A stretch of DNA of 44,374 nucleotides from a virus (Duplodnaviria > Heunggongvirae > Uroviricota > Caudoviricetes), in the IMG/VR virus record IMGVR_UViG_2534681761_000010. One strand, written 5' to 3'. The notes under the pieces were generated by a model, which did not search any database, was not told where the DNA came from, and worked only from the letters and a program-made list of their open reading frames with translations. Positions 11,643-40,278 of this stretch are shown piece after piece. The position numbers and the translations under genes are program-made. Position 1 is the stretch's first letter; each line of letters starts with the position of its first letter.

Positions 11643-12122
11643 TAGAAGGTTAGCTTGCGTCGGACTTGGCGTATTTAAAGAAGTGCTGGTGGTAACTGGT
11701 TGTTGTGTTCCATTTCTACAAAACAAAATCACAGAAACTATACCCAATAGTTATATTGAATCAATGATGAGACAGCCTCATATTTATCAGAACTGGTGTA
11801 CGTCCAATACAGGAGGTTGTCGTGCTGGTTCTCAAATATGCGCTAGCTATTGCGGCTGTAATGGCAATTTATTGTCTTGCTATTGTTCTTACGGATCGCC
11901 TTTCTGATTGATTTTATATTGGCGAGGTGACGGGAGTTAAGTAGAATTGCTGCGGGTGCTTGAGGCTATCTGCCTCAGGCATGAACACCAAAGGCAGATA
12001 GAGAAAAGCCCCAGTTAACATTACGCGTCCTGCAAGACGTTTAACATTAATCTGAGGCTCAATCTATGAACGGCAAATCTAGGTTAGCCTCTTACGTGCC
12101 GAAAGGCAAGGAGAAGCAGGCT

Positions 12123-12278
12123 ATGAAGCAGCAAAAGGCGATGTTAATCGCCCTGATCGTCATCTGTTTAACCGTCATAATGACGGCACTGGTAACGAGG
12201 AAAGACCTCTGCGAGGTACGAATCCGAACCGGCCAGACGGAGGTCGCTGTCTTCACAGCTTACGAACCTGAGGAGTAA
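12123..12278 (+). CDS. hok: Hok/Gef-family type I toxin (51 aa)
   Basis: MKQQKAMLIALIVICLTVI.TALVTRKDLCEVRIRTGQTEVAVFTAYEPEE matches the Hok family; AAGGAG SD; in-frame upstream extension from 12066 may be mok-like. Confidence 0.8.
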   Translation: MKQQKAMLIALIVICLTVIMTALVTRKDLCEVRIRTGQTEVAVFTAYEPEE

Positions 12279-14147: not shown

Positions 14148-14525
14148 ATGACTGAACGCATAGAATTTGTTTTGCCTTACCCGCCAACGGTGAACACTTA
14201 CTGGCGACGTCGTGGCAGCACATATTTTGTATCAAAAGCCGGTGAGCGTTATCGCCGTGATGTGGCGCTTATTGTTCGCCAGCAGCGGCTGAAATTAAAC
14301 CTGTCCGGAAGGCTGGCGATAAAGGTGATTGCAGAGCCACCGGATAAGCGCCGCCGCGACCTGGACAATATCCTGAAGGCACCACTGGATGCGCTGACGC
14401 ATGCCGGACTACTTATAGACGACGAGCAGTTTGATGAAATCAATATTGTGCGCGGTCAGCTCGTTCCTGGTGGGCGGCTGGGCGTGAAGATTTGCGAAAT
14501 CAGAGGCGATGGTAATGGGGCGTGA
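14148..14525 (+). CDS. rusA: Holliday junction resolvase RusA
   Basis: LPYPPTVNTYWRRRG...DKRRRDLDNILKAPLDALTHAGLLIDD matches RusA catalytic motifs; start overlaps upstream stop. Confidence 0.8.
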   Translation: MTERIEFVLPYPPTVNTYWRRRGSTYFVSKAGERYRRDVALIVRQQRLKLNLSGRLAIKVIAEPPDKRRRDLDNILKAPLDALTHAGLLIDDEQFDEINIVRGQLVPGGRLGVKICEIRGDGNGA

Positions 14526-14865
14526 TATGTATGAGGTTTTAGATCGCTGGGGGGCATGGGCTGCAGCAGAAAATAGCGGTGTCGATTGGCAACCGATAGC
14601 AGCGGGCTTCAAGGGGCTTTTGCCACATGGCAAAAAGTCACGTCTCCAGTGTGATGATGATGAAGGCATCATGATAGACGGTTGTGTGGCTCGGTTGCGA
14701 AAGTATAAACCAGAGGAATATGAGCTGCTCATAGCTCACTTTGTTATTGGTGTTTCTCTACGCTCAATCGCGAAGAAACGCAGGTGCTCAGATGGAACTA
14801 TAAGAAAGGAGCTGCAAACTGCATTAGGCTTTATTGATGGATGTATATGCTTGATTCTATCATAA
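14509..14865 (+). CDS. Late-gene antiterminator Q-like protein (short Q family)
   Basis: 118 aa immediately after rusA; C-terminal HTH-like segment; assignment mostly positional. Confidence 0.45.
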   Translation: MVMGRDMYEVLDRWGAWAAAENSGVDWQPIAAGFKGLLPHGKKSRLQCDDDEGIMIDGCVARLRKYKPEEYELLIAHFVIGVSLRSIAKKRRCSDGTIRKELQTALGFIDGCICLILS

Positions 14866-14878
14866 GTTATGACTGTTA

Positions 14879-15265
14879 CTACTCGTTTGCTTGAGCTTTC
14901 GATTCGGCGTCAGATAAAGCATCAATACGAATATTTATGTTTTTTAATAGCTTATTGTCTAGATCGATAAGACATTGGTTGTAGTGCGCAATTTGGTCTG
15001 GTGTTAGGTTAGGGTTGGCCAGGCAGTTCGTGATGAATTTTCTGGCCGTTTTTATTTCCCTTTTCATTCTTACATCATTAAGCGTAGGCAAACCTATGTA
15101 AGCGATAAGAAGAATTACCACATGAGATAAGCCGACAGCAGCTCCAGGCGCCAATGATTTGAAGAAGGCTAATTGAGGAAGCCAGTCAAAAAGGAAATTC
15201 AATCCCGCAGTGATAAGGGTGGTAAACCATGCCTGCATTGCCAGGTAGGATTTAGTGTTCGCCAT
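14879..15265 (-). CDS. Membrane protein (2 predicted TM helices), third gene of divergent cargo operon
   Basis: Hydrophobic N-terminal half; start abuts stop of upstream gene; AT-rich. Confidence 0.5.
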   Translation of the reverse strand: MANTKSYLAMQAWFTTLITAGLNFLFDWLPQLAFFKSLAPGAAVGLSHVVILLIAYIGLPTLNDVRMKREIKTARKFITNCLANPNLTPDQIAHYNQCLIDLDNKLLKNINIRIDALSDAESKAQANE

Positions 15266-15511
15266 TCACCTTCCTGCACTTGCTTCGTTGCGAGTTTTGA
15301 GTTCGCGTAGCAGTAGCGCCAACTCTTCTGCGTCATTTTCGTTTCTAACGCTGACTTTCCTTTTAGCGGTTCTGCCTTCAGGATCGGTGTAGGTTAGTTC
15401 AATATACGCATTCGGCTTTACCCAAACCAAGAACCTAAGCACAGCATATCTGACCGTCGCTGCGACAGCCATGAATACAGTGATGTAAAGCATAATGCTT
15501 AGGATTGACAT
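15266..15511 (-). CDS. Small membrane protein (N-terminal TM helix), second gene of cargo operon
   Basis: MSILSIMLYITVFMAVAATV TM segment; 3-nt gap to upstream gene. Confidence 0.5.
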   Translation of the reverse strand: MSILSIMLYITVFMAVAATVRYAVLRFLVWVKPNAYIELTYTDPEGRTAKRKVSVRNENDAEELALLLRELKTRNEASAGR

Positions 15512-15514
15512 GAT

Positions 15515-16426
15515 TTAAAGTAGTTTCCTATCTGCCGCCGCTCTGTGGCGTATAACCTTAGTAATACTATAGCGTGGTTTAGACAGCGCGCCATTTGTTT
15601 CTTTTGTTGTTTCTGTCAGTTCTACAACAAAAAGATCACCCTTACAGAATGCTGCTTGGTTGTGTTCAACCCGTTCAAGAAAAGCCTCATCTTTCATAGA
15701 TGCACTAACTTCTTCGCCATTTGGCAGGATGATATCCCAGCTTTTGCCTTGCTTGAATCGAACATTAGCAAAATGTACATTAGCTTGGCGTGTCGTTACG
15801 TGCGTTTTCTCGACAAAGGTGGATTTTGCAGTTTTAAAACTTACTGCTTCAGCTTGCGTCACCCTGACTACCTTATGCTTCTGCTGTGAAACTGAGAACG
15901 TGGATGGTTTTTCAGTCTGCAGGGGTTTATAGATTAATTTATCCAGTTCTTTTCGGATGATTGGACTGGTTATTAATTTTTGAATGTCGTTACTGCATTT
16001 AACCTTCTCACCATCCACTTCGATTTCTGCTGTATCTTTTTGTTCATCGACGACAATGGAGCTGATTTTACGCCCTTTGAGCCATTCGATTATCCCGAGT
16101 ACGCCACCTGCGGCAACTCCACCACCTGCAACGAGGCCAAGGGCGTTAATAGTTTTTATGCTCCCCATCACAGCAACAAGCAAAGTAAATGAACCTTCTT
16201 TTGTTGCCTTGATGTTGACTTTCGGCTCTGCTGTTTCGCCATTAATTATTTTTTCGGCGTGTTCAATCAGGGCACTAAGAGAGGTTAAGGCTTCGCCTAA
16301 TGTTTTCGCGTCGATCTGATTATCTGCGTATGCCTCTCCACCGTAGGCAATTTCGATTTCTGTTATTGGCATGTTTTCGAGTTGCTGCGTCATCAAAAGC
16401 ATCCTTTGCGCAAGAGAAATAGCCAC
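15515..16426 (-). CDS. Hypothetical 303-aa protein with central hydrophobic/Gly-rich segment, first gene of cargo operon
   Basis: Central FTLLVAVMGSIKTINALGLVAGGGVAAGGVLGIIEW; no known motif recognised. Confidence 0.55.
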   Translation of the reverse strand: MAISLAQRMLLMTQQLENMPITEIEIAYGGEAYADNQIDAKTLGEALTSLSALIEHAEKIINGETAEPKVNIKATKEGSFTLLVAVMGSIKTINALGLVAGGGVAAGGVLGIIEWLKGRKISSIVVDEQKDTAEIEVDGEKVKCSNDIQKLITSPIIRKELDKLIYKPLQTEKPSTFSVSQQKHKVVRVTQAEAVSFKTAKSTFVEKTHVTTRQANVHFANVRFKQGKSWDIILPNGEEVSASMKDEAFLERVEHNQAAFCKGDLFVVELTETTKETNGALSKPRYSITKVIRHRAAADRKLL

Positions 16427-16516
16427 AGGATACAGATAATTATGAAAAAATCACTAACGCGTACGCAAAAACTATCTTAATCTGTTAAGAGTGGTCGCTT
16501 CGCCACACAACTTAAA

Positions 16517-16538
16517 CCCGCATCAAGCGGGTTTTTTT
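16517..16538 (+). terminator. Rho-independent terminator (tR'-like) upstream of the tRNA cluster
   Basis: CCCGC-ATCAA-GCGGG followed by a run of seven T. Confidence 0.6.
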
Positions 16539-16658
16539 GTGTCACTTATCTCGGATAGACATGGTGAATGCGCTGGTGGAGGAGATAAGGGTGATTTTTA
16601 ACCAGGTGATTTTTGAATGCTTGCAACATTGATTTCGTAACGTTATTATCCTGCGCCC

Positions 16659-16734
16659 GGCCCTTTAGCTCAGTGGTGAGAGCGAGCGACTCATAATCGC
16701 CAGGTCGCTGGTTCAAATCCAGCAAGGGCCACCA
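16659..16734 (+). tRNA. tRNA with CAU anticodon (tRNA-Ile2-like / Met)
   Basis: 76 nt; acceptor GGCCCTT/AAGGGCC, D-stem GCTC/GAGC, T-loop TTCAAAT, encoded CCA; resembles E. coli ileX as recalled. Confidence 0.8.
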
Positions 16735-16741
16735 TCACATA

Positions 16742-16814
16742 CCGCCATTAGCTCATCGACAGAGAGTGCCAGCTTTCGAAACTGGCTGTGTGGGGCTCGG
16801 GTCCCCGATGGCAA
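16742..16814 (+). tRNA. Degenerate tRNA-like element, possible tRNA-Arg (anticodon UCG)
   Basis: Cloverleaf can be drawn, but with 2 terminal acceptor mismatches, a C-A pair at 31-39 and a non-canonical T-loop CTCGGGT. Confidence 0.35.
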
Positions 16815-16831
16815 TCTATTATCTGCATTAT

Positions 16832-16908
16832 GCGTTGTTAGCTCAGCCGGACAGAGCAATTGCCTTCTAAGCAATCGGTCACTGGTTCGAATCCAGTACA
16901 ACGCGCCA
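16832..16908 (+). tRNA. tRNA-Arg (anticodon UCU)
   Basis: 77 nt; acceptor GCGTTGT/ACAACGC, anticodon loop CTTCTAA, T-loop TTCGAAT, encoded CCA. Confidence 0.85.
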
Positions 16909-17083
16909 CGCTTATTTTTCCAGGCTCGCTTCGGCGGGCCTTTTTCATATCCGCGCCACGCCCGGCGAATATCAAAAAACCACAGAGCCTTTCAGGGGTG
17001 AGCTTACGGGATGGTCAGTGTGACTTTCTCTGTGGGCTGGTCACCACCGGGCGCAGGCTCACCCACTAAAAGGAAAAGTCACG

Positions 17084-17509
17084 ATGTTTGGTATTTTCAA
17101 AAAGAAAACCCGCAAGGCCATTACCGAAGTGAAGAAGATGGAGAACCGCGACGCAGTGGAGGCGACCGTCTGGGGCGCGTATTCCATTGCATACGCTGAC
17201 GGCACCTGTGATGCGAAAGAAATCGCAGTACTGGAGAAAACCATTGCAGCACTTCCTGCCTTTGCGCCGTTCTCCGGTGAGATTGCCCAGATGAGCGCCA
17301 ATATCCGCGCCCGTTATGAAGCATCCCCGCGTTCAGCCAATGCCGAAGCCCTTCGTCAGCTGGCTGATGTCGCCGGTACTGATGATGCAGTTAATGTGCT
17401 GTGCCTGTGTCTGGATATCGCTGACCAGGATGGCATTGGTCCGGATGAAGAAGCACAGCTCAAGAAAATTGCGCAGGCGCTTCAGCTACCGCTGGAGCAG
17501 TACCTGTGA
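17084..17509 (+). CDS. Hypothetical 141-aa soluble protein, TerB-like by motif
   Basis: SD AAAGGAAAAG; two DG-x-D/E-E helix motifs (YADGTCDAKEIAVLEK and IADQDGIGPDEEAQLKK). Confidence 0.45.
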   Translation: MFGIFKKKTRKAITEVKKMENRDAVEATVWGAYSIAYADGTCDAKEIAVLEKTIAALPAFAPFSGEIAQMSANIRARYEASPRSANAEALRQLADVAGTDDAVNVLCLCLDIADQDGIGPDEEAQLKKIAQALQLPLEQYL

Positions 17510-17658
17510 AAAGTGCGCGCCTTGTGCTGGCTGCCATCCTGCTGTTTCTGGTAGTGGCAGTGGATTTCACCGGACGGCTGATGTCGGTGCTGGCAGATGG
17601 TGTGCTGGTGGTGATGGCGCTGGTCGTGCTCCGGCCTTTACTGCGTAAATCTGAATAA
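17506..17658 (+). CDS. Small hydrophobic protein (about 50 aa, GTG start) coupled to the upstream gene
   Basis: GTG overlaps upstream stop (GTGA); product is mostly hydrophobic; below the ORF-track size cut-off. Confidence 0.3.
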   Translation: MKSARLVLAAILLFLVVAVDFTGRLMSVLADGVLVVMALVVLRPLLRKSE

Positions 17659-17709
17659 CACCACACAAAAGGCATCTGCGGGTGCCTTTGACGGGGTATT
17701 GTTTTTTAC

Positions 17710-17731
17710 GGGCCGCTGGTGGCCCTTTTTT
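17710..17731 (+). terminator. Rho-independent terminator upstream of the lysis cassette
   Basis: GGGCC-GCTGGT-GGCCC followed by TTTTTT. Confidence 0.55.
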
Positions 17732-17750
17732 ATTTACAGGAGAAAAAAGT

Positions 17751-18143
17751 ATGTCTGAACCCTTATCCGGTTCCGGTACGGCTGCGGCGCTCGGTGGGGC
17801 GACGGTATTCGGGCTGTTTACCGGAACGGATTTCGGGATTGTGTTTGGTGCGTTCGCCGGGGCGTTATTTGTGGCAACAATTCCGCAGGCGCTTTCAGCC
17901 TGGCGTGTGGCGGCGCATTTTCTGGTGTCGTTCATTATCGGCGTGCTGGGGGCAGGGGTTCTGGCATCCTGGCTGGTAAAGCACACAGGGTTTGACGGAG
18001 CGCCTGTCGACGCACTGTGTGCAGTACTGGTGTCAGTGGTGTCGGTGAAGATTCTCTCGTTCATCCACCAACAGGATATCGCATCACTGGTGTCCGGCCT
18101 GTTATCTCGCCTGCGTGGCGGAGGAGGCGGCAATGTTAAGTAA
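17751..18143 (+). CDS. Membrane protein of lysis cassette (holin-like, Gly-zipper rich)
   Basis: AGGAGA SD; multiple hydrophobic GxxxG segments; directly precedes holin and endolysin. Confidence 0.45.
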   Translation: MSEPLSGSGTAAALGGATVFGLFTGTDFGIVFGAFAGALFVATIPQALSAWRVAAHFLVSFIIGVLGAGVLASWLVKHTGFDGAPVDALCAVLVSVVSVKILSFIHQQDIASLVSGLLSRLRGGGGGNVK

Positions 18144-18412: not shown

Positions 18413-18958
18413 ATGAAGTCGAAAGATGAAATTTTTGACGAAGTTCTGGGAAAAGAGGGCGGTTACGTCAATCACCCGGATGATAAAGGCGGACCGACAA
18501 AATGGGGTATTACAGAAAAAGTCGCCCGCGCTCACGGATATCGCGGCGATATGCGTGACCTGACGCGCGGGCAGGCGCTGGAAATACTTGAGGCGGATTA
18601 CTGGTTCGGACCACGTTTTGACCAGGTCGCCGCATTATCCCCTGATATTGCTGCAGAGTTGTGTGATACCGGTGTGAATATGGGGCCGTCCGTAGCATCG
18701 AAAATGCTCCAGCGCTGGCTGAACGTTTTCAACCTGCAAGGCAAATTGTTCCCGGATATGGACGCAGACGGGCGTATCGGCCCCCGCACGATTAATGCAC
18801 TACGGGCTTATCTGCAAAAACGCGACAAAGACGGCGAACTGGTAATGCTGACTGCGCTGAACTGTACGCAGGGGGACCGCTATCTGGAGCTGGCAGAGAA
18901 ACGGGAGGCTAACGAGTCATTTGTCTACGGCTGGATGAAAGAGCGCGTAGCAGTTTAA
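18413..18958 (+). CDS. Endolysin, GH108-type lysozyme with C-terminal peptidoglycan-binding domain
   Basis: N-terminal EGGYVNHPDDKGGPTKWGIT is a GH108-type signature; follows holin. Confidence 0.7.
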   Translation: MKSKDEIFDEVLGKEGGYVNHPDDKGGPTKWGITEKVARAHGYRGDMRDLTRGQALEILEADYWFGPRFDQVAALSPDIAAELCDTGVNMGPSVASKMLQRWLNVFNLQGKLFPDMDADGRIGPRTINALRAYLQKRDKDGELVMLTALNCTQGDRYLELAEKREANESFVYGWMKERVAV

Positions 18959-39678: not shown

Positions 39679-40278
39679 ATGCGTAAATTATGTGCTGTTA
39701 TTCTGTCCGCAGTAGTCTGGCTGGTTGCCGCTGGTACGCCAGCGAGCGCAGCAGAACATCAGTCCACGCTGAGCGCGGGGTATCTTCATGCCCGTACGAA
39801 CGCTCCCGGTAGTGATGATCTGAACGGGATTAACGTGAAATACCGTTATGAGTTTACGGACATGCTGGGTGTTGTGACGTCATTCAGTTATGCCAATGCC
39901 AAAGATGAGCAAAAAACGCATTACAGCGATACCCGCTGGCATGAGGATTCCGTGCGTAACCGCGGGTTCAGTGTGATGGCGGGGCCGTCTGTTCGCGTGA
40001 ATGAATGGTTCAGCGCGTATGCGATGGCGGGTATGGCTTACAGCCGTGTGTCGACTTTCTCCGGGGATTATATCCGCGTAACTGACAACAAGGGGAAAAC
40101 GCACGATGTGCTGACCGGAAGTGATGACGGTCGCCACAGCAACACGTCTCTGGCGTGGGGAGCTGGCGTGCAGTTTAACCCGACCGAATCCGTGGCCATT
40201 GATATTGCTTATGAAGTCTCCGGCAGTGGCGACTGGCGCACTGACGGTTTCATCGTGGGTGTCGGTTATAAGTTCTGA
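39679..40278 (+). CDS. lom: Outer-membrane beta-barrel protein Lom (Ail/Lom family)
   Basis: Signal peptide; GINVKYRYEF and C-terminal YEVSGSGDWRTDGFIVGVGYKF as in lambda Lom. Confidence 0.85.
   Translation: MRKLCAVILSAVVWLVAAGTPASAAEHQSTLSAGYLHARTNAPGSDDLNGINVKYRYEFTDMLGVVTSFSYANAKDEQKTHYSDTRWHEDSVRNRGFSVMAGPSVRVNEWFSAYAMAGMAYSRVSTFSGDYIRVTDNKGKTHDVLTGSDDGRHSNTSLAWGAGVQFNPTESVAIDIAYEVSGSGDWRTDGFIVGVGYKF

Follow-up and report, generated by a model that had tools for sequence, protein, structure and literature searches.

Two small genes lie between the tRNA genes and the lysis genes in a 44,374-nt stretch of viral DNA (IMG/VR record IMGVR_UViG_2534681761_000010), referred to here as the window, in whose positions all coordinates are given. 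What these genes are, and whether they are cargo or belong to the lysis region that they adjoin, is the question addressed here. A sequence-only reading had taken them for a moron encoding a TerB-like protein and a hydrophobic peptide of about 50 residues. The pair is almost certainly the tciA/tciB cargo cassette of the type found in phage P1; gene pairs of this type are already known and widely annotated and are not new in themselves.

Identity of the two genes

tciA (17084–17509, plus strand) starts with an ATG preceded 10 nt upstream by AAAGGA and encodes a predicted cytoplasmic protein of 141 aa. Profile searches for TerB and DUF families, which the sequence-only reading had suggested as a check, gave matches to Pfam TerB, Pfam DUF3927, and PHROGs 632 and 1470. 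TciA scored 32.4 bits against Pfam TerB (PF05099), for which the curated cut-off is 24.4, and matched PHROG 632 ("tellurite resistance") over its full length (E 4.3e-65). The predicted structure (pLDDT 90) has an all-alpha TerB-like fold, and its best matches in a fold search were TerB-like crystal structures, in agreement with the TerB-like character proposed for this product. A sequence search of the PDB with TciA returned only spurious matches to PNPase and histones; the fold search was needed to reveal the TerB relationship. A further fold search against BFVD yielded four viral TerB-like proteins without names and was uninformative, and neither TciA nor TciB has a family in NCBIfam, where the sole match was a sub-threshold one to DjlA (E 0.06).

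Both of the acidic DG motifs that had been pointed out in TciA are present, at residues 38–46 (ADGTCDAKE) and 114–123 (DQDGIGPDEE). Across an alignment of 53 family sequences, E20, D39, E46, G117, and E122 are invariant and G40 is nearly so; the paired D-G...E motifs are proposed metal-binding sites. Residues 1–22 form a basic N-terminal tail (charge +5.5) with the family-wide motif MFGxFKKK, and the helical core is acidic (charge −11). This combination of a basic tail, an acidic core, and invariant D/E pairs would suit a peripheral, cation-binding membrane protein. Purifying selection on TciA is unusually strong, with a median pairwise dN/dS of 0.045 at a dS of ∼1.2–1.3.

tciB (17506–17658, plus strand) encodes 50 aa and starts with a GTG that shares bases with the stop codon of tciA (CTGTGA), with GGAG 11 nt upstream. 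The extents of the two frames and their GTGA overlap are as originally read. The hydrophobic peptide, for its part, proved to be the product of a conserved gene, matching Pfam DUF3927 (E 5.9e-13) and PHROG 1470 ([quoted passage not shown]; E 6.5e-24). Of 91 close loci, 90 preserve the whole frame, and in the remaining one it runs off the end of the contig; the start is a GTG overlapping by 4 nt in 78 loci and an ATG overlapping by 1 nt in 12. With a median pairwise dN/dS of 0.28 at a dS of ∼1.3, tciB is, judging by its conservation, a real gene, and the GTGA overlap is predicted to couple its translation to that of tciA. Relatives share the core LLFLVVxxDFTG(R/K)xMSxLADGVLV, which includes the conserved DFTG(R/K)xMSxLADG in the middle of the peptide. 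Hydropathy analysis gave two hydrophobic segments with basic ends, which fits an N-in/C-in helical hairpin in the inner membrane, the likely topology of the peptide. TerB and DUF3927 are fused in frame in two database proteins (P0051 and P0279); these were given little weight because they are possibly the result of single-base sequencing errors.

A nucleotide search located tciA of P1, which is 82% identical to tciA of the window; at the protein level TciA is 86% (85.8%) and TciB 47% identical between the two phages. The P1 record gives the gene order tciA-tciB-tciC with names assigned "by homology," and the naming of tciAB reportedly originates in the P1 genome paper. The phenotype implied by "Tci" (resistance to tellurite and colicins, inhibition of cell division) thus appears to be homology-based even in P1. 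RefSeq genomes of Escherichia coli label the same pair "tellurite resistance TerB family protein" and "DUF3927 family protein." There is no third ORF between the end of tciB (17658) and the start of the holin gene (17751), where tciC is absent, and the window therefore carries a two-gene variant, as do most lambdoid loci.

Genomic setting

The genes were said to sit between a tRNA cluster and a holin gene, and tRNA genes are indeed found 5′ and two holin genes 3′ of the cassette. From left to right, the region consists of a hairpin at 16514–16534, the tRNA genes, a second hairpin, an untranslated leader, tciA-tciB, two further hairpins, and the lysis genes. Upstream of it all lies the Q antiterminator gene (14509–14865; PF06530, E 3.7e-45), preceded by genes for RusA and a DUF968 protein. 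ARAGORN identified a tRNA with a CAT anticodon (16659–16734), annotated as tRNA-Ile in both phiP27 and the ETEC4090 genome, and a tRNA-Arg (TCT) (16832–16908). Just 3′ of the latter, a scan found a terminator-like hairpin on the plus strand, AGGCTCGCTTCGGCGGGCCT followed by TTTTC (16922–16941), which, in alignments with phiP27 and ETEC4090, marks the left edge of a variable cargo slot.

Terminator-like hairpins had also been noted 3′ of the pair, and two hairpins are present, at 17668–17689 and 17710–17725, both on the plus strand. The first, found by folding, is a 9-bp hairpin within a conserved pre-holin block, and its columns are invariant in a three-way alignment of the window, phiP27, and ETEC4090. 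The second, found by both scan and folding, resembles an intrinsic terminator (GGGCCGCTGGTGGCCC plus a T-run, 17710–17735), with a GC-rich stem followed by a U-run; it is conserved in phiP27 and stands directly 5′ of the ribosome-binding site of the holin gene. The two have an MFE of −28.7 kcal/mol (z −2.2), and read-through of the second by Q-modified polymerase would be needed. Pfam assigns the lysis genes that follow to two holin families (PF16931, 17751–18143; PF05449, 18133–18411) and to a GH108/PG_binding_3 endolysin (18413–18958).

Other features of the window were also recorded. The strong terminator hairpin at 16514–16534 separates a block of minus-strand genes from the tRNA genes and may end a short PR′ transcript, as its tR′ terminator. 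Other prophages become homologous to the window at 16461–16537, a segment in which a weak isrK-like match (E 0.8) was the only RNA-family signal. A decayed tRNA (16742–16815; 23.7 bits in Rfam, below the threshold of 29, and without an ARAGORN call) lies between the two intact tRNAs and occupies the spot of tRNA-Arg(TCG) in related prophages, that is, the argN position of the ileZ-argN-argO trio of Stx phages. The stretch from Q to the tRNA genes also holds an insert of three minus-strand genes (14879–16426; G+C 40–46%). The largest of them, with a product of 303 aa, matches the PADLOC candidate defense family PDC-S42 (E 3e-53), PHROG 3243, and the NCBIfam "LAPAL motif-containing putative phage structural protein"; its small partners (81 and 128 aa) have no family match; this block resembles a classic moron or defense insert more than tciAB does. 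Elsewhere, an Rfam match to sok antitoxin RNA (11954–12128; 111.7 bits) indicates a hok/sok-type toxin–antitoxin locus in the early region, and the tail-fiber region contains a gene for an Ail/Lom outer-membrane protein (39679–40278; E 3e-123), a well-known cargo gene of lambdoid phages.

A cargo slot shared with toxin genes

The cassette lies 3′ of Q and the phage tRNA genes and directly 5′ of the holin-holin-endolysin genes. This is the PR′-proximal moron site of lambdoid phages, a known cargo site (PMC4104026), and because the pair is present in some related phages and absent from others at this site, tciAB is optional cargo of a lambdoid prophage. It had further been suggested that this is the slot in which Stx phages carry their toxin genes. 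That suggestion is borne out by phiP27, where the tRNA-Arg and the holins that flank tciAB here enclose stxA2e-stxB2e instead.

Alignment with phiP27 (L001, AJ298298) extends up to ∼16957–16965, ∼20 nt 3′ of the hairpin at 16922–16941, and resumes from 17564 onward, at 87–92% nucleotide identity. The slot thus holds 606 bp in the window (16958–17563) versus 1512 bp in phiP27, the latter including stxA2e-stxB2e. The right-hand junction falls within tciB: positions 4853–4950 of phiP27 correspond to 17560–17658 of the window and contain an unannotated remnant of the tciB 3′ end of ∼95 nt, frameshifted by a 1-nt deletion, just 3′ of stxB2e. From this truncated remnant it follows that tciB was present in an ancestor of phiP27 and that resident cargo, namely tciA together with the 5′ part of tciB, gave way to the stx2e cassette. 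No statement of such a replacement of tciAB by stx2e was found in the literature searched. The remnant illustrates concretely how toxin genes can enter a phage by replacing resident cargo.

The same holin block is found 3′ of the LT-IIb genes in SerU-LTIIb and 3′ of the stx2k genes in phiSTEC1575, and tciAB is, on the gene content of these loci, interchangeable with toxin genes in the slot. One IMG/VR locus (L218) has lost tciAB cleanly, through a deletion that extends from midway in the leader as far as the 3′ end of tciB. As a separate observation, L218, L202, and L174 are natural rearrangements of the cassette among the IMG/VR contigs, with foreign DNA cutting off tciA after its first codons in L202. 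Recombination junctions recur in the 3′ half of tciB, and the C terminus of TciB is altered at several loci.

The leader and expression of the cassette

tciA is accompanied by a conserved untranslated leader of ∼100 nt (16985–17083, plus strand). It is predicted to fold into a long stem-loop (MFE −40.5 kcal/mol, z −2.3), in the outer stem of which CCUUU (16988–16992) would pair with the Shine–Dalgarno sequence of tciA, AAAGG (17069–17073). In every pair of loci tested, the leader was 79–99% identical versus 44–82% for third-codon positions of tciA at identical residues, so that it changes more slowly than synonymous sites of tciA, and it is ∼85% identical between window-type cassettes and a TciA subfamily with 44% protein identity. 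A 20-nt leader motif, present on at least 120 IMG/VR contigs, is followed by tciA in 113 of 120 copies; four of the seven others are at contig ends and three are rearranged. The leader was not found in P1, and Rfam searches of 16400–17800 (E ≤ 1) and of the whole window (gathering scores) gave no match to it, nor, near tciB, to an AsxR/AgvB-type sRNA.

Both outer stems are kept in two divergent leader variants (L008 and L104) that differ in the interior, and the second stem is weakened in others (the L004 type, L034, and L051). In a covariation analysis of these highly similar sequences, 95.7% of cells were paired versus 95.0% in shuffles; pairs changed on both sides numbered 3 versus 1.5 expected, a value reached in 54 of 500 shuffles. 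Because the leader sequences are too similar to one another, the structure is predicted rather than proven. The conservation nonetheless argues for a genuine cis element, and the simplest idea is that it may serve in translational damping or RNA processing within a long late transcript. An ORF at 17011–17199 was considered as a coding leader peptide and rejected, as it does not keep a constant frame with respect to tciA (in frame in L014, out of frame here).

The description of the cassette as a moron stands in part. The pair is present or absent among related phages and is flanked by hairpins, as expected of a moron, but no promoter of its own was found, and its G+C content (54–57%) matches that of the lysis genes. 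Neither a scan nor inspection by eye detected a sigma-70-like promoter in 16909–17083; an unconventional promoter could be hidden in the conserved leader. Given that no promoter of its own was detected, the hairpins on both sides, and the location of the P1 genes in the C1-repressed ban operon, tciAB is probably transcribed mainly by Q-antiterminated polymerase as part of the late transcript.

Distribution and distant relatives

The gene pair occurs on at least 495 IMG/VR contigs; a TciB identical to that of the window is found on 234 contigs and an identical TciA on five IMG/VR contigs. At 80 IMG/VR loci that were compared, tciAB follows varied sets of tRNA genes (Met/Arg/Arg, Thr/Gly, Val, and others), and the gene next 3′ is usually the PF16931 holin, including at loci where holin identity falls to ∼50%. 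A second tciA subfamily of 848 sequences, 44% identical to the first, is located between Q/tRNA genes and a DUF1737/SASA gene. As a side observation, tciA-tciB and both holin genes of the window have counterparts, at 90.7% nucleotide identity, in Actinobacillus phage vB_Apl-pPE4 (PP818812.1, 17432–18905); this phage was deposited as infecting Actinobacillus pleuropneumoniae, and such closeness is unexpected for a phage of the Pasteurellaceae.

More distant TerB-like genes (28–36% identical) were also found with a small hydrophobic ORF directly behind them. The stop and start codons overlap in a Thauera prophage (60-aa ORF) and in a phage contig that encodes a primase-helicase and DNA polymerase A (35-aa ORF), and in an N4-like phage the 72-aa ORF starts 4 nt past the stop codon. 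In Pseudomonas phage PMBT3, the TerB-like gene is not accompanied by a small ORF. In four contigs of the N4-like and primase-helicase/DNA polymerase A kinds (L023–L026), TciA-like genes that are 28–32% identical, each with a small hydrophobic ORF, lie in accessory blocks beside Sequestin, Tad2-like, and gp49_66 genes.

Proposed role and alternatives

The explanation of the locus that we favor, with confidence somewhat above even for the whole, is that tciAB is cargo, perhaps encoding a membrane-stress module. TerB proteins have been reported to associate with the inner membrane and to interact with the membrane protein TerC, and clusters containing TerB have been linked to filamentation and to resistance to tellurite, pore-forming colicins, and phages. 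The pair would be transcribed mainly within the Q-antiterminated late transcript, and the leader stem-loop, by pairing with the Shine–Dalgarno sequence, may damp translation of tciA. TciB would insert into the inner membrane as an N-in/C-in hairpin and recruit, or work with, TciA, which would place its basic tail and its acidic, probably cation-binding TerB core at the cytoplasmic face. Such a complex might buffer or sense inner-membrane and ion stress, much as ter operons do against pore-forming colicins, phages, and tellurite. That the pair acts on inner-membrane stress during phage development is, taken by itself, a tentative proposal that we consider less likely than not. Gene order, the predicted coupling, and two possibly artifactual fusions are what suggest an interaction between TciA and TciB. 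The genes would be accessory and stand outside the lysis machinery; in P1, tciA, tciB, and tciC are nonessential by CRISPRi (PMC10695390), and the tci operon has been lost from about half of one P1 subgroup (PMC9603915).

The cassette might instead be a moron for lysogenic conversion, expressed in the uninduced lysogen from an unrecognized promoter in the leader and giving the host, for example, colicin resistance or superinfection exclusion. The layout, with terminator-like hairpins on each side, is that of a classic moron, the leader is both conserved and cassette-specific, and the phenotypes historically attached to ter genes protect the host. This reading is nevertheless unlikely, because no sigma-70-like promoter was found in the leader, the cassette is unremarkable in G+C content, the ban operon that holds the P1 genes is repressed by C1 and has no annotated promoter specific to them, and relatives occur in phages without signs of lysogeny.

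Those same relatives bear on a second alternative, counter-defense, in which TciA would interfere with membrane-acting host immunity, for instance by mimicking or titrating the TerB parts of systems such as Bunzi, Shango, or Dionysus or by blocking pore-forming Abi effectors, with TciB as its membrane tether. TerB-domain proteins are found in these three validated defense systems, distant TciA-like genes stand beside Sequestin and Tad2-like genes in phages without signs of lysogeny, the operons of P1 and lambdoid phages alike are active in lytic growth, and the low dN/dS of TciA fits a conserved host target. On the other hand, neither TciA nor TciB matches any PADLOC model, those for Bunzi and Shango included, and anti-defense neighbors were seen in only a few contigs; we rank this idea next and regard it, too, as improbable.

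Adjacency to the two-holin cassette raises a further possibility, that TciB, with or without TciA, is an antiholin or other holin modulator that sets the timing of lysis. TciB is a small membrane peptide with two segments, and in most lambdoid loci the cassette lies ∼90–240 nt 5′ of the PF16931 holin gene, even where the holin is only ∼50% identical. That association does not hold generally, however, because the adjacent holin is missing at many loci (L008–L012 and the L081–L096 group) and the P1 pair is far from the lysis genes, in the ban operon. Phage phiP27, which was reportedly isolated as an infectious phage, has lost tciA and most of tciB, other variants such as L218 are naturally deleted, and tciABC is dispensable in P1. 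A role in lysis timing is accordingly given little credence. Least probable by far is that the small ORF is a chance untranslated frame that leaves tciA as the sole gene: short and GTG-initiated as it is, it matches DUF3927 and PHROG 1470, is intact with a conserved 4- or 1-nt overlap in 90 of 91 loci, has a dN/dS well below 1 (0.28 at dS ∼1.3), is preceded by GGAG, and keeps its core motif in relatives at just 47% identity.

Beyond the favored reading of tciAB as cargo with a membrane-stress role, a broader and distinctly speculative idea is that TciA plus a small membrane peptide is a widespread lytic-phase module that guards the inner membrane of the infected cell against premature depolarization or neutralizes membrane-acting defenses and that is controlled, in enterobacterial lambdoid phages, by the leader through the Shine–Dalgarno sequence. 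If true, the module would span temperate lambdoid phages and P1-like phages, together with N4-like and other phages that show no sign of lysogeny.

The main yield of the analysis is a tidier annotation, in that the "TerB-like moron" is P1-type tciAB, present in hundreds of prophages, and shares an exchangeable slot with Shiga toxin and LT-II genes. Three points appear to have gone unremarked: the tciB remnant of phiP27, the cassette-specific leader, and the recurrence, in distant phages that include some without signs of lysogeny, of a TerB-like gene paired with a small membrane peptide. As TerB is now known from validated defense systems, a phage TerB protein with a membrane partner and a leader is a cheap and sensible target for experiments; tciAB is a reasonable small experimental target rather than a surprising discovery.

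Comparison with known systems

TciA has a TerB domain in common with Bunzi (BnzA), Shango (SngA), and Dionysus (DinB), for the TerB-domain parts of which membrane association or surveillance has been proposed. It differs from those systems in being phage-encoded and single-domain, without a helicase, pore-forming, or other effector partner. A PADLOC scan of TciA and TciB gave no match at E ≤ 1, and by this measure tciAB is not a known defense system.

With TerB of the terZABCDEF operon, TciA shares PF05099, the fold, and the paired D-G...E motifs; the structures 2ou3 and 2h5n are TerB-like. Sequence similarity to canonical TerB is distant, with no PDB sequence match and no NCBIfam equivalog, and whereas the partner of TerB in the ter operon is the multi-pass TerC, that of TciA is a 50-aa peptide. 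TerC, TerD, TerE, TerZ, and TerA are not encoded nearby, and no Ter protein was found among the window ORFs scanned; the neighbors of the cassette are tRNA genes and genes for holins, endolysin, Q, RusA, and a DUF968 protein. On this gene content, tciAB stands outside the ter tellurite-resistance operons, lacking the operon described as required (PMC8123226).

The slot in phiP27 matches that of the window in its position relative to Q and PR′, in the tRNA-Arg terminator on the left, and in the hairpin block and two holins on the right. The closest parallel to the genes themselves is tci of P1, which likewise encodes a TciA of 141 aa and a TciB with a DFT...S/ADG core, has the stop/start overlap, and lies near tRNA genes that include one with a CAT anticodon; in both phages the genes are accessory, and in P1 they are nonessential. 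P1 differs in possessing tciC, in lacking the leader, and in being a phage-plasmid that carries the genes in its C1-controlled ban operon, whereas those of the window belong to an integrated lambdoid prophage, in a probably Q-dependent late operon with holin genes adjacent.
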